Assembly (NCBI GenBank): GCA_900318865.1
Contig: ONMF01000009.1
Location: 25,042-89,041, forward strand
Origin: an uncultured Prevotellaceae bacterium
Lineage (GTDB): Bacteria; Bacteroidota; Bacteroidia; Bacteroidales; Muribaculaceae
Direction: 5' to 3'
DNA length: 64,000 nt
A model generated the notes under the pieces. That model had not been told where the DNA came from, did not search any database, and saw only the letters and a program-made list of their open reading frames with translations. Below, piece by piece: positions 50,381 through 64,000 of the stretch. Made by a program: the position numbers and the translations under genes. Positions within the stretch are counted from its first letter, which is position 1. The number at the start of each line of letters is the position of its first letter.

Positions 50381-50453
50381 GCGACAATAGCTCAGTTGGT
50401 AGAGCGCGACCTTGCCAAGGTCGAGGTCGCGGGTCCGAGTCCCGTTTGTCGCT
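50381..50453 (+). tRNA. tRNA-Gly (GCC)
   Basis: Cloverleaf GCGACAA/TTGTCGC with anticodon loop TTGCCAA; CCA not encoded. Confidence 0.96.
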
Positions 50454-50463
50454 CAACCCAAAT

Positions 50464-50550
50464 GTCCAGGTGGCGGAATTGGTAGACGCGCTACTTTGAG
50501 GGGGTAGTGCCCGTTCGGGCGTGTGAGTTCGAGTCTCATCTTGGACACCA
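50464..50550 (+). tRNA. tRNA-Leu (GAG)
   Basis: GTCCAGG/CTTGGAC acceptor stem, anticodon loop TTGAGGG, long variable arm and encoded CCA. Confidence 0.96.
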
Positions 50551-50557
50551 ATTTTTA

Positions 50558-50588
50558 AAGCAAGTCGCTGAAATTCAGCGACTTGCTT
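50558..50588 (+). terminator. Perfect 14-bp inverted repeat right after tRNA-Leu (terminator and/or att-arm site)
   Basis: AAGCAAGTCGCTGA-AAT-TCAGCGACTTGCTT. Confidence 0.65.
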
Positions 50589-50980
50589 GTTTTATACCCC
50601 TATTTCTGCGCCGATTTTGCACCGAAGATTGTTATCAACACAGTTTCAGCAGACCGCTGCCGTTCTCGGGCGACAGTGGTCTGCGCTTTAATAATATGAA
50701 CTGATGTATATTCTAATCTGACAACTATAGTCATTAACCCATTCATCAATATGTTTCTGAAATTTATATAAGCAATAATACCCTTGTAATTGGTTCCCAA
50801 AAGTAACCATACGTTTTCCTCTCATATCTTCTTGATAAAATGGACTTACACATACTATAATGTTGTTATGTGTCACATCATTCTTGAGAATTTCAGCTTA
50901 GTTTGATTCATAGATTTTATTTTAGCATGGGCTTGTTGAAGGATTTTGCCAAATGTAAGTGTGTTTTTCATCGTTAGTGT

Positions 50981-51949
50981 TTAATATATTATGGTTTCTG
51001 AATGTGGGTTATGCCGTTCAAGATTATAGGAGGCAGATAGGGGTGATGTGTTGGCATAACAATACTTGCAACCATGTGCACATGTGTTATAACTGCCAAT
51101 GTCTTTTGCCAGAATGCATCCGCACATCTTGCGTTGGCCGGTGTCCTTTCTTGCTGAATAGAGGAACTGTTGCAATGCCGCATCGTCGGGTGAGAGACGT
51201 GCTATGAGCTCGGGATCAATGCAACGGTTATGCTCGATGCCATACTGTTCCAGCGCTATCTCCTCGGCACATGTGGCAAGCGTCAAGTTCCACTTATCTC
51301 GATTCAGCGCGCTTAGTTTTTGAGCAAAATCGTTCATTGCTGTCGCGTCCCATTCAAGATAATTCACATGACATTGCTGCAAGTTTCGTTTCACTCTTGG
51401 GTATGTGGCTATATCGGCGAAACTGAAAACCAACTTCTCTGTATATCTGTGAAGTTGCTCTCCGATATAATAAATTCTTTCAAGCAATTTGTCGGTAGAT
51501 ATTTCATCAGTGAGCAAGAGTGGGTCAAAACGCCAAATCACACCGCCTTTTCCCAATTGCTCCACCAATTTTTTAAAACTCTCTATGCGCTCGTCCAAAG
51601 CTGGAACATTTGGCTCTATTCCCTCGGCCTCATAGTCGTTAAGCGTGAACTGGATGTAGCACCCAATCCCTCGCTCTTTGAGCTTATCGAGAAAAGGGAG
51701 GAGAGGCTTAGGATTCTTCGACCAGAAGACAATGAATCGCGTGTTGGCAAATGAAACATAACTATCTGCTCCATTAAACGGGTTGCGCCACCGTGCGTAG
51801 CCCTTTTCAAGCCGATTAAAGAACCAATCGCTATAGAATGCCGGCACATCGGTAGCCCGGCTTGCCGAGATGATGACGGGAGCCTGAGCCTTGACCCTCT
51901 CTCTGCCAGCTGTGACGATTTCGATATGTAGATGCTTTGATGCTGCCAT
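50981..51949 (-). CDS. DUF1848 family protein
   Basis: IISASRATDVPAFYSDWF, IVFWSKNP, QFTLNDY, WRFDP and C-terminal DIGSYNTCAHGCKYCYAN. Confidence 0.9.
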   Translation of the reverse strand: MAASKHLHIEIVTAGRERVKAQAPVIISASRATDVPAFYSDWFFNRLEKGYARWRNPFNGADSYVSFANTRFIVFWSKNPKPLLPFLDKLKERGIGCYIQFTLNDYEAEGIEPNVPALDERIESFKKLVEQLGKGGVIWRFDPLLLTDEISTDKLLERIYYIGEQLHRYTEKLVFSFADIATYPRVKRNLQQCHVNYLEWDATAMNDFAQKLSALNRDKWNLTLATCAEEIALEQYGIEHNRCIDPELIARLSPDDAALQQFLYSARKDTGQRKMCGCILAKDIGSYNTCAHGCKYCYANTSPLSASYNLERHNPHSETIIY

Positions 51950-52195
51950 AGGATATGTTGCAAAAGTACAATATTATCATGATAAAACGTTTCATTTTCC
52001 ATGCTAATCTTTATTTTGGTGCAAAATTAATGAATGAAGAAATCATTGTCAATGCCAAAAAAGAGTTTTGTTCTTATGCGTAGTAGGCTTATTAACAGAT
52101 AGATATAAAACTGCCGGAATCGAGATGCTTATGTAATATGCTGATAATTAATAATATGATGTCGCCGAATTTAACATATAGGTATAGGCGCTCTT

Positions 52196-52522
52196 GTCGT
52201 GGGTGGATTCAAGCACCGACTTCCATTCGCAGAAGATATTGAACGCGCCCATAAGCAGCGTGAAGAACGGTGCCGACAGCACGAACGATGTCAGCACGTC
52301 GATGCAGGAAAGACACAGCATGGGGAGAAAGTATTTGGTGGCTTTCTCCGTGGTCATTTTCAATGCCCTGCTGGTTGTGACTTTCCCTGCGAGTTTGGCC
52401 TTGCGCAGTCCGGCGATGAAATCGACGGCCATTGCCAGAATGACGGCGATGTAGGCGATTGCGAGCCACACGGCATGAATGTGCAGTGAGGCGTTTTTGA
52501 GTGTTTCGACTAAAAATTCCAT
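52196..52522 (-). pseudogene. 3'-truncated phage holin-like gene
   Basis: AMAVDFIAGLRKAK..G...SRALKMT..KA.KYF..L....ID...CEWKSV.E pattern of Bacteroidales phage holins; coding-like GC ends abruptly after ESTHDK and runs into AT-rich sequence. Confidence 0.6.
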
Positions 52523-52531
52523 AGAATTTGA

Positions 52532-52559
52532 TGAGTGATTAGTGGTGAGTGATGAGTGA
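52532..52559. repeat. 4 x 7-bp tandem repeat in the holin 5' UTR
   Basis: TGAGTGA TTAGTGG TGAGTGA TGAGTGA. Confidence 0.75.
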
Positions 52560-52568
52560 TTTTTGTCA

Positions 52569-52604
52569 CAAAGGTCACTCAAAGAAACCAGACTACAAAA
52601 GACA
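52569..52604 (-). promoter_or_regulatory. Island promoter motif copy 1 (TGTCTTTT-N20-GACCTTTG)
   Basis: Exact 20-nt spacing, upstream of the holin stub. Confidence 0.6.
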
Positions 52605-52605
52605 A

Positions 52606-52636
52606 GAAAAACGCACCTCCCGAAAGAGATGCGTCC
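52606..52636 (-). terminator. Terminator of the ECF/beta-barrel cassette
   Basis: GACGCATCTC-TTTCG-GGAGGTGCGT-TTTTT, running directly into the TGTCTTTT motif. Confidence 0.65.
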
Positions 52637-52658
52637 TCAAAATGTATGTGAAGCAGGG

Positions 52659-54809
52659 TCAATAGGAGCGGTTGGATTCTCGCTCTTTGGTGTCGCGATA
52701 GACGTTGTTCACTTTGTTGCTACCGAATGAGTAGGAAACACGCAGCGAGACTGCATGGCTGTGGATGTTATTACGGGCATAGATGCTATAGCCGTTATAC
52801 AGAGCGGTTGATTTCGTGATGTTCCACCCGAAGGGGTCGCTAACGGCGGCTGTAAGCGTCAGACGATTGTCGAGGAGCATATAGCGTAGCTCAAAGCTTA
52901 TCAACGACATGGACTCAAACCGCAACATGCGCTCATGATAGGGGAAATAATGGCTGAACCGGGCGTTGAAGATAAGCGTCTTTGCGCGATTGAGCATCCA
53001 TGACGAGTTAAGCTCAATCTTGCCGCTCCAACTGCTGTCGTCGCCATCTTTGAAATCGGCGATTTTTGATTTTGCCTGTGTGTTGAATACCTCGCCACCT
53101 GCATTCACGTTCCACCAATCGAAGATTGAACGGTAGTAGGAAGCGTAAAGTCCCACTTTGTTGTTGTCGATGCAGTTCTCGGGAATTGAGTGTTGTGAGC
53201 CATCTGTATTGAACCGCGTTACATAAGCAATCGAATTGCGATTATAGGAGTTGTACAGCACTGCATAGAAGCCCTTGAAGCTATAGCTCAGCTCGGCGTT
53301 GTGTGCAATACTTGGCTTAAGGTCGGGATTGCCCGACACATAGTCGCTCGTCGTGGTGTGATAGCGGAAAGGATTGAGGTCGCCGAAGTTCGGCCGAGTG
53401 ATGCCCATAGAATATGACAATGAGAAACGCCCAATGCGTTGATTGTTCCAACTGATGTTCAGCGAAGGGAACAGATAGCCGTAATTGTTGTTATGCTTCT
53501 CATCGCCCATTAACTGACGCCCTTTCACATTGGTATGCTCGTAACGTAATCCGAGTTTTCCGAAAAATGAGTTACTAAAACTCTTTTCGGCACTGGCGTA
53601 AGCTGCAATGGTGTTCTCTTTGTAGTCAAAGGCGTTGCTCTGCGATGGATCGTAAGCCCATCGCGAACCATTGTAAGTCCCGGCGGTCATGGCTGTGTTA
53701 TTACCGATTGTGGTGTAAACCATGCCGGTTTCCATCTTGAATGCGTCGAATGGTAGGGTGGCATCCAGTTTCACAGAATGGATGTGATACTTGTTGTGCC
53801 CGTCATTAGTCAAGCGTGTCGAGCCTCCATCCCAAGTCGTGGTCACATCAGAGAACGACTTGGTTGACTTGTTGAACCAGTTGTAGGTGAGGCTTAATAT
53901 CTTGCCCTTTTCATCAAGTTGCCAATCGGCAAAAGTCGTCAATGTGACGGCATTGTTGGGCCGTGACGGCGAATCATTGTTTGAACTGAATATGTGACCA
54001 TTGTCGTTAGTGACATCGCTTAATTTGCTGTTCATTCTGCTCGTGCTGAAATTGGCTATGCCCCCCACCGCAATTCGGTCGGTGAATTTGTACTTAAAAA
54101 GTCCGTTCAAGCCAAATGCGCGATTGGTGAAATGCGTACTTCGCTTTGAGGCCTTAACATGATCGCTGAAAGTGAAAGTGCGGTCAAGGTCGTTTATGCC
54201 TCGGTTGTCATTCCAGTTTGCGTCAACCGAAAGTTCAACTTTGCGATTGGTATGCGACAAACTGCCCCCCAGCATGTAGCTGAAGTCCTCACGTGCGATG
54301 CCGCGCCCCCACACGTTGCCCCGCGTGCCGAGCGACTCATTGCGCGTGGTGATGCTGATGAACGCCACATTGGTCGCGGCGGCATATTTCGCCGGTGGAG
54401 TGGTGAGCACCTCAATCTTCTCGATGCCCGTTGCTTGTAAGTTCTTCAGCTGCATGGCAATGGCATCGTCGGGCATCTCCAAAAGGCGACCGTCGACGAT
54501 GTAGCGCACCGACGACTTGCCGGCAACAGTCACGGCGTCGCCTTCGACCGTAACACGGGGAATGCGGTCAAGCACCTCGATGCCGTTCAACCCCTTGACG
54601 AACTCGTCATTCTTGGTGAGATAGACGATGCGGTCGGGGGCCTGCTTGAGCACCGTGCGGTGCCCTACTACCACCACTTCGTTCAATTCCAGCACTTTAT
54701 CCCAGTAGTTGGCAATGGAGTCAATGGCTGTTGAGTCATTGTTTTCCTGTGCAAAAAGGGACGTAGGAAGTATAGCCATCAACAAGATGGCTTTCAATGG
54801 TTTGTTCAT
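52659..54809 (-). CDS. Outer-membrane beta-barrel (TonB-dependent receptor-like, OMP_b-brl_3 type)
   Basis: Signal peptide, LNEVVVVGHR, plug motif LDRIPRVTV..IEKIEVLTTPPAKY.A, RP.FGDLNPF, GNPDLKP and C-terminal RVSYSFG. Confidence 0.85.
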   Translation of the reverse strand: MNKPLKAILLMAILPTSLFAQENNDSTAIDSIANYWDKVLELNEVVVVGHRTVLKQAPDRIVYLTKNDEFVKGLNGIEVLDRIPRVTVEGDAVTVAGKSSVRYIVDGRLLEMPDDAIAMQLKNLQATGIEKIEVLTTPPAKYAAATNVAFISITTRNESLGTRGNVWGRGIAREDFSYMLGGSLSHTNRKVELSVDANWNDNRGINDLDRTFTFSDHVKASKRSTHFTNRAFGLNGLFKYKFTDRIAVGGIANFSTSRMNSKLSDVTNDNGHIFSSNNDSPSRPNNAVTLTTFADWQLDEKGKILSLTYNWFNKSTKSFSDVTTTWDGGSTRLTNDGHNKYHIHSVKLDATLPFDAFKMETGMVYTTIGNNTAMTAGTYNGSRWAYDPSQSNAFDYKENTIAAYASAEKSFSNSFFGKLGLRYEHTNVKGRQLMGDEKHNNNYGYLFPSLNISWNNQRIGRFSLSYSMGITRPNFGDLNPFRYHTTTSDYVSGNPDLKPSIAHNAELSYSFKGFYAVLYNSYNRNSIAYVTRFNTDGSQHSIPENCIDNNKVGLYASYYRSIFDWWNVNAGGEVFNTQAKSKIADFKDGDDSSWSGKIELNSSWMLNRAKTLIFNARFSHYFPYHERMLRFESMSLISFELRYMLLDNRLTLTAAVSDPFGWNITKSTALYNGYSIYARNNIHSHAVSLRVSYSFGSNKVNNVYRDTKERESNRSY

Positions 54810-54826
54810 AATGATTTATTGATTAG

Positions 54827-55210
54827 TTATTTGAATGCTTTTTCTTTGCCTTGAATGAAGAAGAAAGCTCCGCCATGCTTGTCGCGTTGCAGGCCAATGT
54901 AGATGAGTTCGCCGTTGTTGACAATCTGGAGCGACATGTACTGCCCGTCAGCTCCATTGTAATCAGAGTATTCTTTTGCTTTTGGCGCATCTTTCGAGAT
55001 GGCTTCAGCAATTTTCTTGACAATACCAGGGTTGTTCTTTACTGTCAGTCCGCGATAGTAGTTGCCATTGTTTTTGTAGATTGAAATGGTGACACTCTTG
55101 TTGTCGTTGTATCGGCCATCAAACAGGCTCTCAACGTTCAGCTTCGGTGGGTTGGCATAGACCGCCAAAGCTGTAACTATGCACGTGATTATGATGATTA
55201 AACGTTTCAT
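54827..55210 (-). CDS. Small secreted hypothetical protein
   Basis: Signal peptide; the start overlaps the upstream stop codon (TAATG). Confidence 0.75.
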   Translation of the reverse strand: MKRLIIIITCIVTALAVYANPPKLNVESLFDGRYNDNKSVTISIYKNNGNYYRGLTVKNNPGIVKKIAEAISKDAPKAKEYSDYNGADGQYMSLQIVNNGELIYIGLQRDKHGGAFFFIQGKEKAFK

Positions 55211-55602
55211 TACTGTTGGGATTTATGTTGCATGAATTGATTTACTTTCTCTTGTTCAGAGGCATTTTGCTGTGCCACAGTGCGCATGAATTGCTCCATC
55301 CTTGCGACATCGGCTTCGGCAATCGACTGCGCTTCATCGCCACTGGTTTTCTGCCCTGCGACATATACGACACACTCGCGGCCGCACGATGTGGCAACAG
55401 CCCCTTTGCCATTGAAAAGCATTGCCGCTCCAACAATCAGCACTATGCAAGCTGCCGCCGCGGCACTCCGAAACCAGATTGTGCCCTTGTGTTTTTGAGC
55501 AGAGACGGCGCGGACTCGTTGGCGCAGCGCCAGTGACGCGCCGATTGAACGTCTCGGCCTCAATAATTCTTTTATGTCTTGATATTCATCCATATCGGTC
55601 AT
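55210..55602 (-). CDS. Putative single-pass anti-sigma factor
   Basis: Short cytoplasmic N-terminus and one TM (AAAAACIVLIVGAAMLF); ATGA-coupled to the ECF sigma gene. Confidence 0.65.
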   Translation of the reverse strand: MTDMDEYQDIKELLRPRRSIGASLALRQRVRAVSAQKHKGTIWFRSAAAAACIVLIVGAAMLFNGKGAVATSCGRECVVYVAGQKTSGDEAQSIAEADVARMEQFMRTVAQQNASEQEKVNQFMQHKSQQ

Positions 55603-56102
55603 TGATTATTGGTGAAATACTTTTCTCGCAGCTTTTTCATTCCCGCATAAAACCGTGATTTTGCTGTTGATTGTGGCAGACTGAGTATGTGGCTTATCTC
55701 CACAAACGAGAGTTCGTCAACCACTTTCATTCTCACAATCTCGGCCTCATTAGGCGGCAAGTCGTCCAGCAGGTTGTTGATGCGGTCAATCTCCTCTTGT
55801 TCAAGTCGCTCATCCGGCTCGTCGGCCAACTCAATGCTGTCAAGAGGGACAGTTGGGAGACGCTTTCTCCTGAACTCATCCCGGCACAAGTTGTAAACGA
55901 TTTTGAACAAGTAGCACCTCGTAGCGTTAACCTTTTCTCTGTTTTCAAGCAGGCGCACCACGGCCTCACACACAATATCTTCTGCCATAGGGCGGTCGCA
56001 CGTGCGGAAGTAGGCAAACCTTACCAGCGCGTCAAGGTTCGCCTCAATCACTTCGTCAATATGTCTACGTCTGCTGCCAAACATAATCTCCTGAACACTC
56101 AT
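55599..56102 (-). CDS. ECF-type RNA polymerase sigma factor
   Basis: Region 2 (AEDIV.EA..RL...YLFKIVYNLCRD) and region 4 (LP..EAEIV.M....ELSF.EIS.IL..P.ST.KSR). Confidence 0.9.
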   Translation of the reverse strand: MSVQEIMFGSRRRHIDEVIEANLDALVRFAYFRTCDRPMAEDIVCEAVVRLLENREKVNATRCYLFKIVYNLCRDEFRRKRLPTVPLDSIELADEPDERLEQEEIDRINNLLDDLPPNEAEIVRMKVVDELSFVEISHILSLPQSTAKSRFYAGMKKLREKYFTNNQ

Positions 56103-56225
56103 TCGGCGTTCCACTATATAAGACGCAAAAATACGAAAATCGCCGAAAAGAAGTGAGGAAAAATCTGTCGCGAGGTATTATGTCGCTTAATATTTGAAAA
56201 TTTGCAACCAGAAAACGAACAGATT

Positions 56226-56336
56226 ATGGCAGATCAGATTAACAACGAATTAGTGAGCGGTGGTGAATATTCGCTGTTCCGCGACGACATATTGAAACGC
56301 ATCCGCAGTGCCCAATATGAGGCCTTGCGTGCGGCT
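56226..56336 (+). pseudogene. N-terminal stub of a DUF1016 (YhcG/PDDEXK) gene
   Basis: EYSLFRDDILKRIRSAQYEALRA matches the DUF1016 N-terminal helix; similarity ends at about codon 37. Confidence 0.6.
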
Positions 56337-56380
56337 TTCTTCTTGTGTGCGCTCTCCTGCGCTCTCGCTCGGCTCATCGC

Positions 56381-56445
56381 AACAATCGTGCAAACCGAAT
56401 GCAGAGTCAAGCTTGCTTGAACTATGCTAAGAGGCGCAGCCGATT
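56381..56445 (+). repeat. Short palindromic dispersed repeat (REP/MITE-like)
   Basis: AAC[AATCGTGCAAACCGAATGCAGAGTCAAGCTTGCTTGAACTATGCTAAGAGGCGCAGCCGATT]AAC: AATCG/CGATT ends, internal hairpin and a possible AAC direct repeat. Confidence 0.6.
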
Positions 56446-56463
56446 AACGCGAAATTTATTTCG

Positions 56464-56499
56464 CAAGAGTAGATTGCTACGGTGGCTCGGCAAAAGACA
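56464..56499 (-). promoter_or_regulatory. Island promoter motif copy 2 (TGTCTTTT-N20-TACTCTTG)
   Basis: Exact 20-nt spacing, just downstream of the DUF3667 stop. Confidence 0.55.
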
Positions 56500-56517
56500 C
56501 CGTTTACTTCATGATTT

Positions 56518-57546
56518 TCACGGATGCTGTGTTTCGTGAGGCTCGTCCGCTTGATTCACAGTGGAAGTGGCGGGCTTGGAGCGTCGATGGTCAATGTGCC
56601 ATGCTATCGGCAGCCCAATGCCGACTAGCACCAGGATGAACAAGCCGAAGGCGATGGCGCCAAGCACCTGGTTGCTCATGGCTTTTGTCGTCCATAGCCT
56701 GTGTCCAACCAATTCGATAATCAAGGCTGAGAACATCAATAGCACCCCGTTCCACCACACCGCAACTATTCGCCACAATGTGCCCCACACGCTGTAGCCA
56801 AATAGCTGATAATAACTGCGAAACCACACCAGCCCCAGCATTATCAGCAAGATCAATGTCATCGATGCCGGGTGACCGTTGGGCAACACGACCGAGGTCA
56901 GCAATCGCCATACGCTCATCTGCACGCCTATAAACACCTGGATGAAAAAGCTCTCGGGCAGCGTGTGGCGGTTGCATCGTGGCGACTCGCGACAGATGAG
57001 GTAGGTGGGAACGATGAAAAACGAGAGCATAATCAACGTTGCCCATGCAGGATTATCTTTAAGCCAGTTGATGGTGATGACGGTGATGTTAAAAATACTG
57101 ATACTGTCGTCACTGATGTCGATCTTAGTCTCTGCTTGCGTGACGCCAAAGATGTTCTCAACCAGCAGGATGATGACGGTGACGAAAAACAACATCTTGA
57201 CTGGCGGAAAACTCACCTGCCGCTTTCCGCTGATGTAGTCGGCAATGAAGTAGCCCGGTCGCAGCATCAGTTGCCAGATGGAGTAAGGCATGGAGCGTGT
57301 GCCCATGCCCCAAAGGTCGAGCGCGCTCTCGCGCACGGCGCCCCAGGTGATATGTTGCTGGCCGGTCTTCTGGCCGCACACAGGGCAGTAGTTGCCCTCG
57401 TACTCGTAGCCGCAGCATGCACAGGTGTGGCCGGTCGACTCCTTGACCTTGAACTCGGAACCATTCTGCTTCCAAGATTGAAAGCGCATGTAGTGTTCTT
57501 TGATGGTTGGTTGTAAGCGTGTGTATCGTTCTTTGATATTTGACAT
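56518..57546 (-). CDS. DUF3667 membrane protein
   Basis: C..CG..YEGNYCP.CGQK zinc knuckle, LMLRPG..I.DYISGKR..FPPVKM and multiple TM helices. Confidence 0.85.
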   Translation of the reverse strand: MSNIKERYTRLQPTIKEHYMRFQSWKQNGSEFKVKESTGHTCACCGYEYEGNYCPVCGQKTGQQHITWGAVRESALDLWGMGTRSMPYSIWQLMLRPGYFIADYISGKRQVSFPPVKMLFFVTVIILLVENIFGVTQAETKIDISDDSISIFNITVITINWLKDNPAWATLIMLSFFIVPTYLICRESPRCNRHTLPESFFIQVFIGVQMSVWRLLTSVVLPNGHPASMTLILLIMLGLVWFRSYYQLFGYSVWGTLWRIVAVWWNGVLLMFSALIIELVGHRLWTTKAMSNQVLGAIAFGLFILVLVGIGLPIAWHIDHRRSKPATSTVNQADEPHETQHP

Positions 57547-57636
57547 AAAACAATCAATTTTGAGCTACAAAAATAATATTTTTTTGCCAACTCACGCGCA
57601 GTACCCCGTGCTGCAAACTTTGTCGAGCTGAAGGTT

Positions 57637-57712
57637 CGGGCGAGATGGACTCCTTTTCAGTCTCGACCCGGAAAGCGGAAACGAGTGCTGATAGTTAGTT
57701 GGTATCAATCAT
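57637..57712 (-). pseudogene. Short phage-gene stub with an internal stop (MIDTN*LSALVSAFRVETEKESISPE)
   Basis: ATG directly downstream of promoter motif copy 3. Resemblance to Bacteroidales prophage protein N-termini is from recall, not searched. Confidence 0.4.
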
Positions 57713-57740
57713 AAGAATGTAGTTTTGCTGAATTGCTGTG

Positions 57741-57776
57741 CAAAACTACATTGATTGAGTGGTAGAGCAAAAGACA
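57741..57776 (-). promoter_or_regulatory. Island promoter motif copy 3 (TGTCTTTT-N20-TAGTTTTG)
   Basis: Exact 20-nt spacing, fused to the preceding terminator. Confidence 0.62.
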
Positions 57777-57781
57777 AGAAA

Positions 57782-57805
57782 AAAGCCCACCCAAAGGTGA
57801 GCTTT
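57782..57805 (-). terminator. Terminator of the 57824-58402 cassette
   Basis: AAAGCTCACC-TTTG-GGTGGGCTTT-TTT. Confidence 0.7.
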
Positions 57806-57823
57806 ATTCTGATGATGCGTTAA

Positions 57824-58402
57824 TTATAAGTCATCCATCGCGGCATTATTCATTATAGCACCATTAATACCATCTATATATGCCAAGATCACATAGCATT
57901 TACTAACACCCTCATGGGCTAGAGACAAAGCAATCCGCCCCTTTTCAGTGTCGAAGATAGTTTTATAAGTACATCTATCAAACTTTAATTCATATAGTTT
58001 ATCACTATCATTTCTTGGTTGCACCATAGATTGAAAATTTTCTACGACCTCACTTGGTTCACCATATTTCGTTGTAAGCATTTTTTTGAGTTTAGTATAA
58101 TTCGCCTCCAACAATCCCCATTGGTCTAGTGCTGGGAACATTACGCCAACCAGATAGACTAAATCTTTTTGGTCGACAGAACTTACAAACACATAGCAGT
58201 CTTTATATCCAGCGAAATCACCTGTTAGCATGGCTTGACCATTTTCGCTTCCTAGTTTTATGAAGCCTTTTTGAGTCAGTTGCGAACTAAATTGACGAAG
58301 TGTACCATCAATTGGAATACCCTTAAATGTAAGATGCTCACTTTGAGCAAATATAGTTATGGGTAATAATAACAATATGAGAAATAATAATTTAGCTTTC
58401 AT
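57824..58402 (-). CDS. AT-rich secreted hypothetical protein (moron-like)
   Basis: Signal peptide MKAKLLFLILLLLPITIFA then QSEHLTFKGIPIDG; own TACCTTTG promoter. Confidence 0.8.
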   Translation of the reverse strand: MKAKLLFLILLLLPITIFAQSEHLTFKGIPIDGTLRQFSSQLTQKGFIKLGSENGQAMLTGDFAGYKDCYVFVSSVDQKDLVYLVGVMFPALDQWGLLEANYTKLKKMLTTKYGEPSEVVENFQSMVQPRNDSDKLYELKFDRCTYKTIFDTEKGRIALSLAHEGVSKCYVILAYIDGINGAIMNNAAMDDL

Positions 58403-58456
58403 ATTATTGGAATTATTAAATTCAGATAGTGCAAAGGTACTATAATTTTCGTAACC

Positions 58457-58868
58457 TCAGCTACTTCTCCCGAAATTTTTATCGAGGGCGTTGCTCAAAA
58501 TGCCCGTGAAAGTGGCCCCGATATTATCCTCATAGAACTCCTTGATTCGCATTGCCGAGGCGTAATACTTGCGCGAGAACCAACGGCGGCGTTTGCTTGC
58601 CGTGCCGCCAAGCCCAGTCGTTATTGCCGTAGCGGTGCAGGACTTTCAGCCCTGCCCAGCGGCAGAGGCAATAGGCTTTGACATCGGTTGCGGTGTAGCC
58701 CTGCGCGAGCAAGACGAAAACGTACCGAAGCTGCTTGTCCGATAAATCCGCGGTTTAGCGAGAGCAGAAAGAATAACGTTTTTTCTTTTTGCCAAGCGTG
58801 AGCGGATTATCTAAATCTTCCCATCTGGTGGGAAGTTTGAGGTCGATGGAGATTTTGTCTTGTTGCAT
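58457..58868 (-). pseudogene. Fusion of two phage-like gene fragments, interrupted by a 69-bp insertion
   Basis: Reconstructed N-terminal fragment MQQDKISIDLKLPTRWEDLSDKQLRYVFVLLAQGY...HGKQ joins out of frame to the C-terminal fragment KRRRWFSRKYYASAMRIKEFYEDNIGATFTGILSNALDKNFGRSS*. Confidence 0.55.
58743..58817 (+). mobile_element. 63-bp MITE/REP-like insertion flanked by a TAAATC direct repeat
   Basis: TAAATC at 58743-58748 and 58812-58817; internal AATCCGC/GCGGATT inverted repeat. Removing 58749-58817 restores the frame W-E-D-L-S-D-K-Q. Confidence 0.72.
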
Positions 58869-58890
58869 AGAAAAAGCGGTTATCGTACTG

Positions 58891-58926
58891 CGAAGGTACG
58901 GTAACCGCTTCTATGCGTAAAAGACA
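58891..58926 (-). promoter_or_regulatory. Island promoter motif copy 4 (TGTCTTTT-N20-TACCTTCG), embedded in a long inverted repeat (58865-58916)
   Basis: Exact 20-nt spacing; GCATAG..AAGCGGTTA.CGTAC/GTACG.TAACCGCTT.CTATGC. Confidence 0.58.
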
Positions 58927-59420
58927 ACGATTTGTGCCTTATCTCACAATCATGTTGAGCATCGCTCTAACTCGTTCACGCTCGGCAATGCTCATGCAAG
59001 CATGGCGTTGCTCTCACTTAATCACTCGTTTTTTGCCGTCTTCGATGACGATGCCCTTGTAGTCCTTGCCTACGGGTTGGCCCATGAGGTTGTAACGCTG
59101 GCCGCTCTTTGCGGGCGCCACGTTGATGTCCTCAACACCGGTAGCGATGGCCTCCCTGAAGGTGGCGGTCACTGCCACGGGAGCAGCCGGCATCTGGAAG
59201 GTGTAAGTGCCATTCTCACCAGGAGTGAGCTCCAATGAGCCGCCGCGCAGACGCAAGGGTGCGCCGCTCGGCTCGCCGTCGACGGTGGTCACGGTGAGGT
59301 TTTCCAACTCATAACCATCATCGGGTGTCACGGTCAGCGTCACGGTCTCGCCCTCGGCGGCGGTAGTCTTATCACATTCCACTGTGCCGTGCTCAAACGA
59401 TTCGGGCAGACTGATGGCGA
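58913..59420. repeat. ~500-bp direct repeat, copy 1 (3' coding module plus 3' UTR of the surface-protein cassette)
   Basis: Near-identical to 60992-61499 at offset 2079. Confidence 0.92.
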
Positions 59421-60633
59421 ACTGAGGCGACACCACGTTCAGATGCATGACTGACATACCAGGCATATCAGGATTGCCTGAAGCCTTGACGGTATAGGTG
59501 ACACCAGCCTCCAGATTGATCGTGAAATCCAAATTTGAACTGACGTTAAAATATCTGCTAATCAAATTTTCTCCCAGATATATTTCAATAGCGGGACGTA
59601 TTTCAGCATCGCCAGTTGTGTAGAACCTATAATCACCGCTCTCTGTAGGCGTGAATAAATAATCGAAGGAGTTACCATATGGAACGTCAATCACATTCTT
59701 GCCCACAGTGAGGGGGGGGAGTTCGAGTTTGGCGATGTTAAAGATCACGCCCTCGAGTACGTCTTCTACTTGAGCCATCGGCACGACGTAGTAAGTCTCA
59801 TTTGCCTCAAGCATGGCTCCTACCTTGACCGTTTCACCCGCAGGAGCATAACCAGAACCTTTAAGGTCGTTGTTTTTAAGAAGCAGTACTTGCGCTATGG
59901 CGCCGCAGTTCATCGAGAAAACGTAGGCTCCACTTTCTTCGGGCACAAAGGCATATTGTGTGCCATCGTAACTCAAATCTATCTCATTGTCGCCCATTTG
60001 GAGCGATGGCATCTCGTATGACCCGCTGATGACGACATCGGCTGCGGGCATGGTGAATGTGTAAACCATTCCAGATTCATCGACTGTCATGGCGACAGGC
60101 TGGCCGCCGCTGGTGGCCGTCAGACCAGAAATAGTCACTCCTGGACTCACCGTTAGTTTGACTTCTTGTCCCTCGTAGGCCACAACAGGCAGTGGTCCCA
60201 TCACATTTGAGAGTTCGGCACACTCGGGGTCGGGGATGATGATGTGGCCTGGGCGTATCACAACCTGGGCAGAAACACTTGTAGTTAATTCATTATTAGG
60301 TAACAGCCGCATGATATAGGTGGTGCCGGCGTAAAGCTTGTTCGGATAGCCACAGTGGCTGACGTGCGTCTGTAGGAGTGCATCCGGCTCGGACCAGGCA
60401 TAGTACAGAGAGTCGCTCCACAGGTTTAAAGCCATGGAATGCGATTCGGCGCATGTTGTGCTTATCACATAATAACCGGTCTCCTCGGGAGTGAACGACA
60501 GATAGCCCTTGTCACTGTCATTAGAGCCTAACTCAATTCCATTGTTCTCTCCCATTTGGAGCGGGATGAACTCTTGTGCCCACACCGTGGCGGTGGTGAG
60601 CAGTGCGAAAAGAAATAGTAATACTTTTTTCAT
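59014..60633 (-). CDS. Secreted modular surface protein A (three PPC-like beta-sandwich repeats, InlB-B-like repeats, T9SS-like tail)
   Basis: Signal peptide; repeated L..G.N.I...F.P.ESG.Y.F; GETVTLTVTPDDGYEL; YNLMGQPV...KGIVIEDGKK. Confidence 0.82.
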   Translation of the reverse strand: MKKVLLFLFALLTTATVWAQEFIPLQMGENNGIELGSNDSDKGYLSFTPEETGYYVISTTCAESHSMALNLWSDSLYYAWSEPDALLQTHVSHCGYPNKLYAGTTYIMRLLPNNELTTSVSAQVVIRPGHIIIPDPECAELSNVMGPLPVVAYEGQEVKLTVSPGVTISGLTATSGGQPVAMTVDESGMVYTFTMPAADVVISGSYEMPSLQMGDNEIDLSYDGTQYAFVPEESGAYVFSMNCGAIAQVLLLKNNDLKGSGYAPAGETVKVGAMLEANETYYVVPMAQVEDVLEGVIFNIAKLELPPLTVGKNVIDVPYGNSFDYLFTPTESGDYRFYTTGDAEIRPAIEIYLGENLISRYFNVSSNLDFTINLEAGVTYTVKASGNPDMPGMSVMHLNVVSPQFAISLPESFEHGTVECDKTTAAEGETVTLTVTPDDGYELENLTVTTVDGEPSGAPLRLRGGSLELTPGENGTYTFQMPAAPVAVTATFREAIATGVEDINVAPAKSGQRYNLMGQPVGKDYKGIVIEDGKKRVIK

Positions 60634-60673
60634 ACGCGTATGGTTTTAAAAGTGAATAAATGAGTTATACAAT

Positions 60674-60743
60674 CAAAGCGGCACACTCAAGCCGAAGCAT
60701 GAATGTGCCGTATGAGGTTGTTTATAAGAAACCAGTCCTACAA
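60674..60743 (-). promoter_or_regulatory. Conserved 70-nt 5' leader, copy 1
   Basis: Identical to 63251-63320, both 40 nt upstream of the ATG; contains a cUUCGg-capped hairpin. Confidence 0.75.
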
Positions 60744-60991
60744 AATCTGAGTGGCAATAATACACTAACAATCAAAGACTTATGCGTGTTATGCAAGTCA
60801 AATATCCTTTGGGCTGATATGTTAGCGATTGCAATCATTATCTTTATTACCCTTGTTTGAAATACAAATGTATAGCTAATATTTAACATGGCAATCACCA
60901 AACGGCTGAAATTTCAAGAAATCTACGAATTTTGCCGAATGAGAAGGGCTTTTGAGCCGCCAAAGTTCACGACACATCGGTTGGCGGTGTG

Positions 60992-61499
60992 ATGCGTAAA
61001 AGACAACGATTTGTGCCTTATCTCACAATCATGTTGAGCATCGCTCTAACTCGTTCACGTTCGGCAATGCTCATGCAAGCAAGGCGTTGCTCTCACTTAA
61101 TCACTCGTTTCTTGCCGTTCTCGATGACGATGCCCTTGTAATCCTTGCCTACGGGCTGGCCCATGAGGTTGTAACGCTGGCCGCGCTTGGCGGTAGCCAC
61201 GTTGATGTCCTCAACACCGGTAGCGATGGCCTCCCTGAAGGTGGCGGTCACTGCCACGGGAGCCGCCGGCATCTGGAAGGTGTAAGTGCCATTCTCACCA
61301 GGAGTGAGCTCCAATGAGCCGCCGCGCAGACGCAAGGGTGCACCGCTTGGCTCGACGTCAACAGTAGCCACGGTTAGCGTTTCCAACTCGTAGCCGTCGT
61401 CGGGGGTCACGGTCAGCGTCACGGTCTCACCCTCGGCGGCTTCAGTCTTGTCGCAAGTCACCGAGCCATTCTCAAACGATTCGGGCAGCGTAATAGCAA
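60992..61499. repeat. ~500-bp direct repeat, copy 2
   Basis: Near-identical to 58913-59420. Confidence 0.92.
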
Positions 61500-63210
61500 A
61501 TGGCTGATATTCTACGATGGGCATCATCTGGGGTGTGTCGGTGACCGGCGGCAGGGCGAGGAACGCCTCGTTCTGCGGCATCATGTCGCCCAAGTAGCGG
61601 TAGTAGCCCACACCGTAGTTGTTGCCCAGCAAGTAGAAGGTATGCTCTGGGTAGTTTACAGCTGTCCAGTTGGGGATGTATCTGGGGGCGTTCTCGGCGT
61701 GCAGCTCGTTAGCCCGCGTGTCGCTGCTTGTGTCGGTGGTGCGGTTCAGTTGCACGAAATTGTTGCTCTTGCCCGTCTTCAGCACCACCGCCGTTCCAGC
61801 ATTCACTATCTTGTCTTTCACCTCGGTCAACACCACCTTACCGTCTGCCACCGTGGCTTTATAGACCTTCGCCGCTCCCTGCGCCTTGAAGTTGGCGTAG
61901 TCGTTGTAGAACGTCGTCCAACTCGCGTCGTCCCAGTTATTCGTCCTTGGCTTCAATACCAGCGTCGTTGCGTCGGGAAAGGCTTGCGCTCCCATCGTTG
62001 GATTGCCGCTGATGGTGACCGAGTTCAGGGCGTTACATTCGTTGAATGCTTTATTCCCGATGCTCGTCAAGCTGCTCGGGAGGGTGATGCTTGTCAGGGC
62101 GTCACAATTGAAGAATGCCATCGTCCCGATGCTCGTCAGGCCAGACGGGAATGTGACGCTCGTCAGGGCGTAACAATTGAAGAAGGCTTCATTCCCAATG
62201 CTCGTCAGGCCAGACGGGAATGTGACGTTCGTCAAGTGGATGCAAGAATAGAAGGCGTTGTTGCCAATGCTCGTTACATTGGGCATCTTGAGGGTCTCAA
62301 GTTTGGTCCAGATGAATGCTCCGTCAGCGATGCTCGTGACGGAGGCAGGTAGTTCATCTTCCTTTATCTTTATGCCGCTGTTGTCCACGATATGGACATT
62401 CTTTAAAAATCTGCACTGATTGGCCGACGGTATCGTGCTGGCGTCATAGTCTTGGCTGAAGTATATCGTTCTGAGCTCGCTGAAATCTGAGAAGTTCATG
62501 CCCGTTATTCCTACCACTGCTGCGCCGTCGATGATGGCGGGGAAGGCTAATATGTCGCTTTTCGGTAAGCCAAAAGAAGAGAGTCCCGTGACGTGGCATT
62601 GAGAGCCGTCGCTGCTCTTCTGGATATCCCAACCTGGCGCAGCGTTGGATTCGCAGTGCATATAGATGTAGTCCCCACCGGCACCATCGTTCAGGTCGTA
62701 GCCCGTGGCTGCACTAAAGGTGTATATGCCACCGCTCTGCGTCGCGTTGAAGGTGATTTGGCTGACTGCTTCCATATTTTCCATTATTTCCGTGGTGTAG
62801 TAGAGGTGGATGTCGTCACCGCCGGCATTGCTGTTCAGGTCGCCCTTCTTCTGCTTGAAGTGGTCGCCGCCGTCATAGGGCACCAGCTTAAAGCGATGGC
62901 CGTAGGCGTCACGGGTGTCGGGGGCAGTGCCAGAGGCGTCGCTGATAAGGAAACGCGTGACGAAGGTGTGGTTGGGCGATGCCGTACTTCCCTCTTTGTA
63001 GAGCAGATAGATGTAGTCGCTCGACGAGCCGCAGCCCGCATTCAGGTCCTGGTCGATGACCGTCCAGCCTTGGTCAGTGTAGGTATCCTTAAGCTCGTCG
63101 GTCTCGGTTTTGGTGCCTCCTATGAGCATCACCTCGGCGATGTACTTCGGCTCGGCCCACATCGAGAGACTGGCGAGCACAGCCACAAGTAAGAGTATAA
63201 ACTTTTTCAT
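61093..63210 (-). CDS. Secreted modular surface protein B (MABP/beta-prism-like DLNxGAGGDYIY repeats, BspA-type LRRs, InlB-B-like repeat, T9SS-like tail)
   Basis: Signal peptide; DLNAGCGSSSDYIY, DLNSNAGGDDIH and DLNDGAGGDYIY; TFPSGLTSIG..AF..C LRRs; C-terminal ~135 aa about 90% identical to protein A. Confidence 0.85.
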   Translation of the reverse strand: MKKFILLLVAVLASLSMWAEPKYIAEVMLIGGTKTETDELKDTYTDQGWTVIDQDLNAGCGSSSDYIYLLYKEGSTASPNHTFVTRFLISDASGTAPDTRDAYGHRFKLVPYDGGDHFKQKKGDLNSNAGGDDIHLYYTTEIMENMEAVSQITFNATQSGGIYTFSAATGYDLNDGAGGDYIYMHCESNAAPGWDIQKSSDGSQCHVTGLSSFGLPKSDILAFPAIIDGAAVVGITGMNFSDFSELRTIYFSQDYDASTIPSANQCRFLKNVHIVDNSGIKIKEDELPASVTSIADGAFIWTKLETLKMPNVTSIGNNAFYSCIHLTNVTFPSGLTSIGNEAFFNCYALTSVTFPSGLTSIGTMAFFNCDALTSITLPSSLTSIGNKAFNECNALNSVTISGNPTMGAQAFPDATTLVLKPRTNNWDDASWTTFYNDYANFKAQGAAKVYKATVADGKVVLTEVKDKIVNAGTAVVLKTGKSNNFVQLNRTTDTSSDTRANELHAENAPRYIPNWTAVNYPEHTFYLLGNNYGVGYYRYLGDMMPQNEAFLALPPVTDTPQMMPIVEYQPFAITLPESFENGSVTCDKTEAAEGETVTLTVTPDDGYELETLTVATVDVEPSGAPLRLRGGSLELTPGENGTYTFQMPAAPVAVTATFREAIATGVEDINVATAKRGQRYNLMGQPVGKDYKGIVIENGKKRVIK
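62040..62270. repeat. 69-bp tandem repeats encoding 23-aa BspA LRRs
   Basis: CCC(G/A)ATGCTCGTCAGGCCAGACGGGAATGTGACG recurs with a 69-bp period. Confidence 0.85.
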
Positions 63211-63250
63211 AAGCGGTAAGTTTTATGAGTGAATAATAAATTTCACGAAG

Positions 63251-63320
63251 CAAAGCGGCACACTCAAGCCGAAGCATGAATGTGCCGTATGAGGTTGTTT
63301 ATAAGAAACCAGTCCTACAA
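63251..63320 (-). promoter_or_regulatory. Conserved 70-nt 5' leader, copy 2
   Basis: Identical to 60674-60743. Confidence 0.75.
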
Positions 63321-63432
63321 TTTTTGGTGGGGTAAATGCGCTGGTTGTCTGCAATTTATGTAAATCACCTAAGCCGCAGTCACATTGAATGGTATATTGA
63401 CAATCGCGCATCATAAAGCATTAAGATAGTTC

Positions 63433-63471
63433 TCAACTTGGTCTGTCCTTATCTTTAGATTGCTCTCTCAT
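63433..63471 (-). pseudogene. 12-codon stub of the cognate HepT/DUF86 toxin gene
   Basis: MREQSKDKDRPS* overlaps the nucleotidyltransferase 3' end, as DUF86 starts usually do. Confidence 0.55.
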
Positions 63472-63754
63472 AGATTAATTGTCTATCGTAGTTTGCGTCC
63501 TCAGCAATCAGTGGACGCATGGTGCCGTCTTCAACAAGATCAACATCTCGACCAAGCTTCTCCTTTAACTCTCTCCACATTCGGGCGTAAGCTAAAAGTC
63601 CGATTGCCGTACTATGGTCAAATTCAACAAGGATGTCTACATCACTGTCGGGGGTCTCCTCGCCACGAGCGAAAGACCCAAACAGCCATGCTTTCAAGAC
63701 AGGTTGTGTCTTGAAATACTCGGCGATTGTCGTTTTGATGTCTTGCGTACTCAT
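63455..63754 (-). CDS. Minimal nucleotidyltransferase (MntA-type antitoxin)
   Basis: KAWLFGSFARGEETPDSDVDILVEF and LGRDVDLVE. Confidence 0.9.
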   Translation of the reverse strand: MSTQDIKTTIAEYFKTQPVLKAWLFGSFARGEETPDSDVDILVEFDHSTAIGLLAYARMWRELKEKLGRDVDLVEDGTMRPLIAEDANYDRQLIYERAI

Positions 63755-63871
63755 AAGCCAAAACCTAATATATCATAATGCAAAGATAAATAAATTTTCC
63801 AAATGGTAATCGAAATAGCCTAAAAATATTGAGGCTATTCCGATTTTTGACTGACTTTTGGTCAATGCCAA

Positions 63872-64000
63872 TCATGACAGCGACTTGTCGATGATGGTGG
63901 GCACCATATCGACATCCTCCTTGAACACCTTGCCCGAGTCCACCTGACCCTTTAGCCGTTCGAGCGTAGGCGAGAAAAACGCCGCCGAGGCGTTCAAGTG
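63872..64000 (-). CDS. C-terminal end of an unknown CDS (5' part outside window)
   Basis: Open frame HLNASAAFFSPTLERLKGQVDSGKVFKEDVDMVPTIIDKSLS* with GC-rich codon usage. Confidence 0.55.
   Translation of the reverse strand, partial: HLNASAAFFSPTLERLKGQVDSGKVFKEDVDMVPTIIDKSLS

Follow-up and report, generated by a model that had tools for sequence, protein, structure and literature searches.

A tRNA-Leu island in a ruminant-gut Bacteroidales bacterium is very probably a cryptic prophage reduced to gene stubs and accessory cargo

The DNA that follows a tRNA-Leu gene in the genome of an uncultured Prevotellaceae bacterium raises the question of what kind of element leaves intact accessory genes alternating with short gene fragments. 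We analysed a stretch of 64,000 nucleotides (the window), corresponding to positions 25042-89041 of contig C17 (ONMF01000009.1) in an assembly of 2.51 Mb and 30 contigs; the contig ends 312 bp past the window. The genes upstream of the tRNAs are of the housekeeping type, including a pfkB kinase and folE (NCBIfam), and sister contigs carry triose-phosphate isomerase, Indigoidine_A and SPOR-domain genes (Pfam) on the same side. The guanine-plus-cytosine (GC) fraction falls from ~0.58 before tRNA-Leu to 0.41-0.50 straight after it, and all credible genes between 50981 and 64000 lie on the minus strand. This common orientation had been pointed out by a first-pass annotation made from the sequence alone, which read the region as a prophage cut down to its cargo by deletion, with phage-gene stubs left between the intact genes. 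Comparison with intact relatives suggests that the region is very probably a cryptic ("grounded") prophage, and the locus is a very clean instance of a known decay process.

The five stubs named in the first-pass annotation were tested by homology and all are truncated genes. Two more were found, namely the N-terminus of a portal gene and a 77-aa (amino acid) phage gene just past the window, which is split by a 64-bp hairpin insert. The tRNA genes and the phage-gene fragments within the window are as follows:

50381-50454: tRNA-Gly(GCC), directly upstream of tRNA-Leu (ARAGORN, Rfam)
50464-50550, plus strand: tRNA-Leu(GAG), the boundary of the element (ARAGORN, Rfam)
52148-52522, minus strand: holin gene, 3'-truncated; homology covers residues 1-111 (52190-52522), after which 13 unrelated residues lead to a stop
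57596-57714, minus strand: stub of a 498-aa phage protein ("MIDTN*"); codons 1-26 (57636-57712), codon 6 being TAA instead of CAA
58463-58892, minus strand: fused phage gene pieces, residues 9-93 of a 183-aa protein (58566-58892) and residues 98-141 of a 142-aa protein (58463-58594)
63875-64000, minus strand: stub of a portal-like 454-aa protein, residues 3-45 (63875-63997), with its start ~35 bp past the window end

The holin stub aligns to residues 1-111 of phage holins of 161-184 aa (tblastn 4e-68), matches Pfam Phage_holin_4_1 and covers positions 8-114 of the 157 in phrog_20732. The segment 57623-57712 corresponds to residues 1-30 of a variable 498-aa protein (tblastn 1.6e-9). This stub continues into a 70-bp palindromic insert, of which the left 40 bp are present, and comparison with insert-bearing copies places its join to a unit carrying a DUF3667 gene inside the insert. 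The two fused pieces gave tblastn values of 8e-20 and 2e-21, and nucleotide alignment to the intact genes locates their junction at 58596-58624, with ~1.0 kb deleted; the 183-aa piece is itself broken by a ~64-bp hairpin insert (58743-58817) with a GATTT duplication. For the portal stub, tblastn returned 1e-9 on the window and 7e-11 when the piece past the window was included, the full-length reference protein matches phrog_11226 (portal; 9e-6), and nucleotide identity to a complete provirus (see below) is 93%. The 498-aa protein has no match in the phage record collection and no useful match in PHROG, Pfam or NCBIfam, and its AlphaFold model has a mean predicted local distance difference test score (pLDDT) of 40.7.

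Relatives of the stubs are found in the same genome. A 5 kb contig (C19) matches window positions 52193-52564 and 57636-57714 at 90% identity, so that the holin stub is paired with an intact 161-aa holin (90% nucleotide identity) and the 498-aa stub with C19 positions 4732-4810 (likewise 90%). C19 encodes a 498-aa protein starting MIDTNQLSALVSAFRVETEKESISPE, the 161-aa holin (phrog_20732), two paralogous small proteins and an endolysin amidase (phrog_435). On a further contig of this genome (G000:C3:18291-26934), a tRNA-like match is followed by an integrase, 69% identical to that of a complete provirus, and then by a tape-measure gene; together with C19 (L021:1-5076, from the 498-aa gene through the amidase) it makes up a second element of the phage family, for which no matching head genes were found in the assembly.

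The intact gene order was taken from a reference module in another species (L064, genome G060), which runs through a 498-aa protein (possibly the terminase), the 77-aa protein, the portal-like 454-aa protein, DUF6712, the 183-aa protein, an Avd-like gene on the opposite strand, the 142-aa protein, the variable 498-aa protein, the holin, the small paralogues and the amidase. An alignment of four 498-aa proteins was then used to search IMG/VR, yielding ten loci on contigs of up to 76.7 kb, including two rated as 100% complete proviruses. All ten share one gene order, with a lipoprotein gene and a tape-measure-like gene past the amidase. In one complete provirus, tRNA-Pro is followed by a 511-aa integrase gene, and the tape-measure, lysis and 498-aa genes point to that end; the stubs in the window are oriented to tRNA-Leu as these genes are to tRNA-Pro. 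The six backbone fragments have the same order and strand as in the reference module and the ten viral loci; the intact IMG/VR viruses compared measure 50-77 kb. The stubs thus have phage homologues, as the first-pass annotation had supposed, and are colinear with an intact family.

This family is known only from metagenome contigs, and related loci occur in ruminant-gut metagenome-assembled genomes (MAGs) labelled Muribaculaceae, Sodaliphilus, Prevotellaceae or Bacteroidales. A complete genome (G090) was considered as an intact reference and dropped, its copy of the 498-aa gene being an orphan 340-aa gene among non-phage genes. Five viral records showed no match to the tRNA region. A GC-rich stretch of 1.2-2.6 kb without a credible open reading frame (ORF) separates the lipoprotein and tape-measure genes (L074:14249-16859, L073:15495-17324, L021:1-506), and Rfam found nothing in this stretch of the intact phages.

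What is left of the backbone in the window is ~1.2 kb (arithmetic from coordinates), or less than 2%, in fragments of 26-111 codons. Between tRNA-Leu and the last stub there is no intact structural, replication, packaging, capsid, tail, endolysin or integrase gene. On this comparison, a temperate tailed phage would have integrated at or next to tRNA-Leu, belonging to a family widespread in ruminant-gut Bacteroidales MAGs and with its integrase end probably toward the tRNA. Comparison shows the backbone to have been lost by deletion: the stretch from integrase to holin (~13 kb in a complete relative), ~1 kb separating the 183-aa gene from the 142-aa gene, the body of the 498-aa gene, that of the portal gene along with DUF6712 (~2 kb), and everything past the 77-aa gene (~50 kb). 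The missing lengths on the tRNA side (~13 kb) and the far side (~50 kb) are arithmetic against the coordinates of the complete provirus. The accessory genes that are still intact are those for an S41 peptidase, the MNT antitoxin, two BspA-like adhesins, the 192-aa protein, DUF3667, the operon for an extracytoplasmic function (ECF) sigma factor and an outer-membrane protein (OMP), and DUF1848. Those within the window, with the remnants of decayed cargo, are as follows:

50981-51949, minus strand: DUF1848 gene, intact, 322 aa (Pfam PF08902, 2e-94; PADLOC RTasDUF1848, 6e-46)
52659-56114, minus strand: ECF-OMP operon, four intact genes replacing the body of the 498-aa phage gene (Pfam, NCBIfam); its genes are the next four entries
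55599-56114, minus strand: ECF sigma factor
55210-55602, minus strand: 130-aa membrane protein, putative anti-sigma factor
54827-55210, minus strand: DUF6108-like gene
52659-54809, minus strand: OMP_b-brl_3 outer-membrane barrel
56226-56420, plus strand: DUF1016/YhcG stub; ~35 N-terminal residues are homologous (56232-56336), and the frame enters a hairpin repeat at 56381-56445
56518-57546, minus strand: DUF3667 membrane protein, intact, 342 aa (Pfam PF12412)
57824-58402, minus strand: 192-aa gene, intact, GC 0.37, in the variable slot between the 142-aa and 498-aa genes
59014-60633 (539 aa) and 61093-63210 (705 aa), minus strand: tandem pair of BspA-like surface protein genes (Pfam), in a unit spanning 58913-63320
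63411-63471, minus strand: HepT toxin remnant; first 10 codons (63442-63471), a 284-bp internal deletion, then the last codons out of frame
63455-63754, minus strand: MNT/MntA nucleotidyltransferase antitoxin, intact (Pfam NTP_transf_2, 9e-17; NCBIfam MntA_antitoxin; PADLOC PDC-S09)

The intact phages carry gaps of varying length between conserved genes, and several cargo units of the island fall into these. The gap between the 77-aa and portal genes measures 0 to 3.5 kb and is filled in the present array by the S41 peptidase gene; that between portal and DUF6712 reaches 1.7 kb. The gap between DUF6712 and the 183-aa gene reaches 1.4 kb, and in the window MNT-HepT and the two BspA genes occupy it. 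The placement of MNT-HepT there fits, because two other contigs have this module directly after a C-terminal fragment of DUF6712. The fourth gap, between the 142-aa and 498-aa genes, ranges from 0.1 to 3.5 kb and is filled by the 192-aa gene, a 29%-identical homologue of which adjoins a 498-aa stub in another genome (G062); the 192-aa gene had no family match in Pfam, NCBIfam, PHROG or PADLOC scans. A variable slot between conserved phage genes thus holds for the S41 peptidase, MNT, BspA and 192-aa genes, and is not clear for DUF3667, the ECF-OMP operon and DUF1848.

The cargo is under purifying selection, with ratios of nonsynonymous to synonymous substitution rates (dN/dS) of 0.03-0.40 when measured against orthologues in other species. 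Within the operon the values are 0.06-0.10 for the OMP barrel, 0.03-0.09 for the DUF6108-like gene, 0.10-0.19 for the 130-aa gene and 0.17 for the ECF sigma gene. DUF1848 gives 0.10 against the copy at the same tRNA site in G081, and DUF3667, which is 81% identical in amino acid sequence to the copy in G077 and 79% to that in G081, gives 0.29-0.40. The host retains these genes by selection. The array is fixed among assemblies of the species: independent assemblies give agreeing gene calls, and exact-protein look-ups recovered it in many independent metagenome contigs at 99.6-100% identity. The BspA-like genes, which contain LRR_5 and Flg_new_2 domains, have common 3' ends with flank (497 bp, 92% identical) and 5' leaders (166 bp, ~81%), and one same-species variant (L033) lacks the 539-aa copy, the loss running exactly through the 497-bp repeat.

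In sister contigs that continue past the window end, the portal stub is followed by the S41 peptidase gene and the 77-aa phage gene. Past these the genes are unrelated, encoding a C69 peptidase, a serine recombinase and a large restriction-modification protein accompanied by separate pieces of specificity domains. In one of these contigs (L029:1-5124, ~5-10 kb past the window end), the restriction-modification gene is Eco57I/MmeI-like and called at 1057-1108 aa across assemblies, and next to it are a 203-aa serine recombinase and detached pieces of TaqI_C specificity domain, a layout that looks like specificity switching by inversion.

Not all of the cargo has been preserved, and the HepT and DUF1016 modules would have decayed in their turn. 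For HepT, nucleotide alignment to intact MNT-HepT modules on other contigs places the deletion junction at 63440/63441, with 97-99% identity on the MNT side and 76-94% past the junction. Intact HepT has 114 aa and matches PF01934; the MNT antitoxin is now without an intact toxin, leaving the MNT-HepT (type VII) toxin-antitoxin pair incomplete. The DUF1016 stub was not recognised by hmmscan and a distant YhcG gave no significant match. Its identity was settled by a six-frame search of the genus, in which residues 3-37 are 62-64% identical to the N-termini of ORFs of 347-376 aa (E 1e-10 to 3e-6). Two of these ORFs were extracted and have this N-terminus in common, and the one scanned consists of DUF1016_N and YhcG_C. 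MNT, DUF1848 and full-length YhcG are candidate or accessory defence families in PADLOC, and two of the three defence-type modules in the window are broken.

The first-pass annotation had also given most of the intact genes a promoter or terminator of their own, a view that holds in part. Generic scans were at chance, with 25 sigma-70 promoter-like sites (17.7 +/- 5.0 expected) and 12 terminator-like sites (14.2 +/- 3.1 expected). The Bacteroidetes -7 motif TAnnTTTG, by contrast, lies 19-37 nt upstream of five candidate transcription units and is strongly strand-biased in the region (13 on the minus strand, 1 on the plus). It stands at -19 and -80 of DUF1848, -19 of the ECF sigma gene, -29 of DUF3667, -37 of the 192-aa gene and -34 of MNT; within the ECF-OMP operon it is present ahead of the sigma gene only. 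The retained accessory genes would have Bacteroidetes-type promoters. Good terminators are a hairpin at 52607-52638, at the OMP end, and another at 57782-57805, at the end of the 192-aa gene. For the BspA genes neither the promoter motif nor a terminator was found, and an Rfam scan of the island returned nothing apart from the two tRNAs.

Hairpin elements of 64-70 bp, in two types, interrupt the remnants of the 77-aa, 183-aa and 498-aa genes, and one marks a junction. The elements and related units are:

58743-58817; 57596-57635; 56381-56445; L029:8203-8270: hairpin elements
58969-59015; 61048-61094: related hairpin units, each after the stop codon of a BspA gene

They occur in three or four copies in the genome, nearly all in this region, and in none of the ten viral loci, and are not regular at unit borders. 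A high-copy mobile repeat as the maker of the junctions was dropped given these three or four copies. An integron-like cassette array was likewise rejected, there being no tyrosine integrase on the contig, the hairpins being irregular at borders and the serine recombinase lying beside the specificity pieces.

The site itself is not part of a syntenic core. Relatives have kept the folE-tRNA-Gly-tRNA-Leu block, while the genes past the tRNA differ in all four relatives with sequence there, other species carry unrelated islands at tRNA-Leu, and the ECF-OMP operon is accessory, being present in 22 of 81 genus genomes. Since the stubs have phage homologues and the region is not syntenic core, the prophage interpretation is contradicted on neither point. 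The number of tRNA-Gly(GCC) copies ahead of tRNA-Leu varies, with one in the window, two in a same-species assembly (L026) and one to three in related species.

Several observations weigh against a prophage that was simply trimmed in place. The first-pass annotation had suggested seeking an integrase and a tRNA-Leu 3' duplication farther along, and neither turned up: the contig has no tyrosine integrase, and the window and the 10 kb that follow it in sister assemblies show no integrase fragment, no attachment-site (att) repeat and no repeated tRNA-Leu 3' sequence of more than 11 nt. Because both are missing, we only infer that integration took place at tRNA-Leu. Relaxed selection is not clearly apparent in the truncated holin (dN/dS 0.07-0.16), which retains an open frame and, judged by eye, apparently three membrane helices, a caveat on calling it a stub. 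A close-homologue search did not find the window cargo in intact viral contigs of the family, and IMG/VR viral contigs yielded no close homologue of DUF3667, the OMP or the 192-aa gene. The ECF-OMP operon occurs outside phage contexts as well, in 10 of 14 loci examined with no stubs of this phage; 6 of the 14 place it near tRNA-Ser. DUF3667, finally, lies upstream of the 498-aa stub in two species (G077, G081) and downstream of it in the window, and because of this change of side the array cannot have arisen from deletion alone. Homologues of DUF1848 are present in 13 viral contigs, all unrelated to this phage family.

From these sequence comparisons, DUF3667, and the DUF1016 stub together with the ECF-OMP operon, look to have recombined in later rather than to have been left by simple deletion, and part of the cargo was probably gained by recombination with related phages or remnants. 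The proposal of a prophage reduced by deletion therefore stands for the colinear stubs and for the cargo in variable slots, and has to be amended for the part that looks imported. Among the 14 loci with the operon, phage traces lie beside it in two (once an integrase fragment, once portal fragments), and in one (G073) a truncated DUF1016 gene adjoins it as in the window; in two more loci, retrieved via 498-aa stubs, a stub of this gene adjoins the operon. In six other species (L184 = G060:C51, L181, L185, L188, L191, L194) the operon sits 0.3-3.6 kb from tRNA-Ser(GCT), and one of the six has an integrase fragment between tRNA and operon. In another species a fragment made up of the last 83 OMP residues (L018, G005:C53:305-553; 80% identity) lies ~5 kb from the tRNA-Gly/Leu cluster, and the same contig also holds a full copy of the OMP gene elsewhere.

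How far do such stubs extend beyond this locus? Across 80 ruminant-gut MAG loci, the 498-aa gene is represented by ~58 N-terminal pieces (<=92 aa) and 16 full copies, where retrieval through an N-terminal peptide anchor over-counts N-terminal pieces and small inserts split many alignments. Fragments of the 142-aa gene often begin at residues 97-100, and in ~15 loci a unit of 142-aa-gene end, cargo and 498-aa-gene start is repeated, with three such units in one locus. In one chromosomal array the cargo DNA is 89-93.5% identical to slot cargo of a complete provirus and 78% identical to that of another viral contig, and one viral contig has an extra 142-aa-gene end within the slot. Longer arrays in other species (L060, G082:C47:10000-29000; L119) have up to four 142-aa-gene ends and up to three 498-aa-gene starts, with cargo of dockerin-like and BspA-like surface proteins, AAA ATPases and small paired genes.

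One alternative takes this pattern as the sign of a cassette platform, in which the 3' end of the 142-aa gene and the 5' end of the 498-aa gene serve as homology arms through which chromosomal remnants and infecting phages of the family would swap and stack cargo, the window holding one or two units. The excess of N-terminal pieces over full copies, the clustered 142-aa-gene starts, the ~15 loci with repeated units, the extra gene end in a viral slot, the near-identity of chromosomal and proviral slot cargo and a related element within this genome that matches the stubs at 90% identity all agree with it. The first of these counts is inflated by the anchoring, however, and the clustering at residues 20-26 of the 498-aa gene reflects largely alignment splits at small inserts rather than breakpoints. 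The units moreover have no linked recombinase, the close-homologue search did not find the window cargo in phages, and tandem prophages decaying repeatedly under selection could yield the same pattern. We regard a cassette platform as rather unlikely. Tentatively, the 142-aa/498-aa slot might be a two-way cargo exchange site, at which remnants stack the units of successive phages and could return cargo to infecting relatives by homologous recombination; the window would then be one small array instead of mere wreckage, itself a doubtful proposition. An active exchange role for the stubs is possible.

A more distant alternative dispenses with a whole prophage at this site and has a decayed array, or pieces of one, imported from the remnant in another genome into a tRNA-Leu hot spot. 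Copies in other species match the stubs at 89-96% identity, against 68-79% for the folE flank, although higher cross-species similarity of phage than of core DNA is expected anyway. This scenario would also suit the unrelated islands at tRNA-Leu in other species, the different order in which G081 has DUF3667, DUF1848 and a 498-aa stub at this tRNA, and the failure to find an att repeat or integrase. Six fragments that keep phage order, strand and the expected orientation to the tRNA speak against it, and we consider it improbable. Readings of the region as a phage satellite or phage-derived machine that is still active, or as an assembly chimera, are very hard to credit. The region is compact, adjoins a tRNA and has a related phage in the same genome that could be a helper, but intact genes for an integrase, replication, packaging, capsid, tail or endolysin are all lacking from it, and the arrangement recurs in many independent assemblies at 99.6-100% identity. 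A cryptic prophage with partly imported cargo is the reading we prefer.

Defective prophages of this kind, for example in Escherichia coli K-12, have been covered in a review (PMC6379469) and modelled (PMC7744054). Their decay preferentially removes genes for replication, packaging and release, and incomplete prophages are enriched in integrases (PMC7744054). The present element resembles them in having phage DNA at a tRNA, in its lost lytic functions and in its host-useful accessory genes, and differs in the extreme extent of decay, with <2% of the backbone left as ordered fragments of 26-111 codons, in the loss of the integrase too and in its host, an uncultured ruminant-gut Bacteroidales lineage. 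Because prophages are expected to lose lytic functions while keeping genes useful to the host, we regard the locus as a new example and not as a new kind of element. Morons are independent transcription units inserted between conserved phage genes (PMC3594210). Several cargo genes of the window are similar in occupying phage-variable positions and having a promoter motif, a candidate terminator and deviating GC; unlike morons, the window cargo was not found in intact phages, and the ECF-OMP operon, with its four genes, exists outside phages too.

P2-like phages and P4-like satellites have variable cargo hot spots between conserved core genes. The fixed slots described here, with changing accessory and defence-type genes (MNT-HepT, DUF1016/YhcG, DUF1848), are comparable, although phage family and host phylum are different and borders of the window type persist as chromosomal stubs, sometimes repeated. 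Temperate Bacteroides/Phocaeicola phages (LoVEphage, BI-TP1, PV4-TP1, BS-TP2) have an annotated holin that is 43-44% identical over 86-91% of its length, but no match to the 498-aa protein.

The locus offers a base-level view of a prophage decaying to its cargo in poorly studied gut bacteria, where intact relatives allow each junction to be located. It also provides candidate host-benefit genes kept by selection, comprising adhesin-like surface proteins, the ECF sigma/outer-membrane module, DUF3667 and DUF1848. Less ordinary is that the same stubs bound cargo units, at times in repeated arrays, in many ruminant-gut Bacteroidales genomes. Because these borders recur in so many related genomes, remnants of the phage family may be frequent, and they are possibly both a route for cargo between phages and chromosomes and a common, unannotated feature of such genomes.

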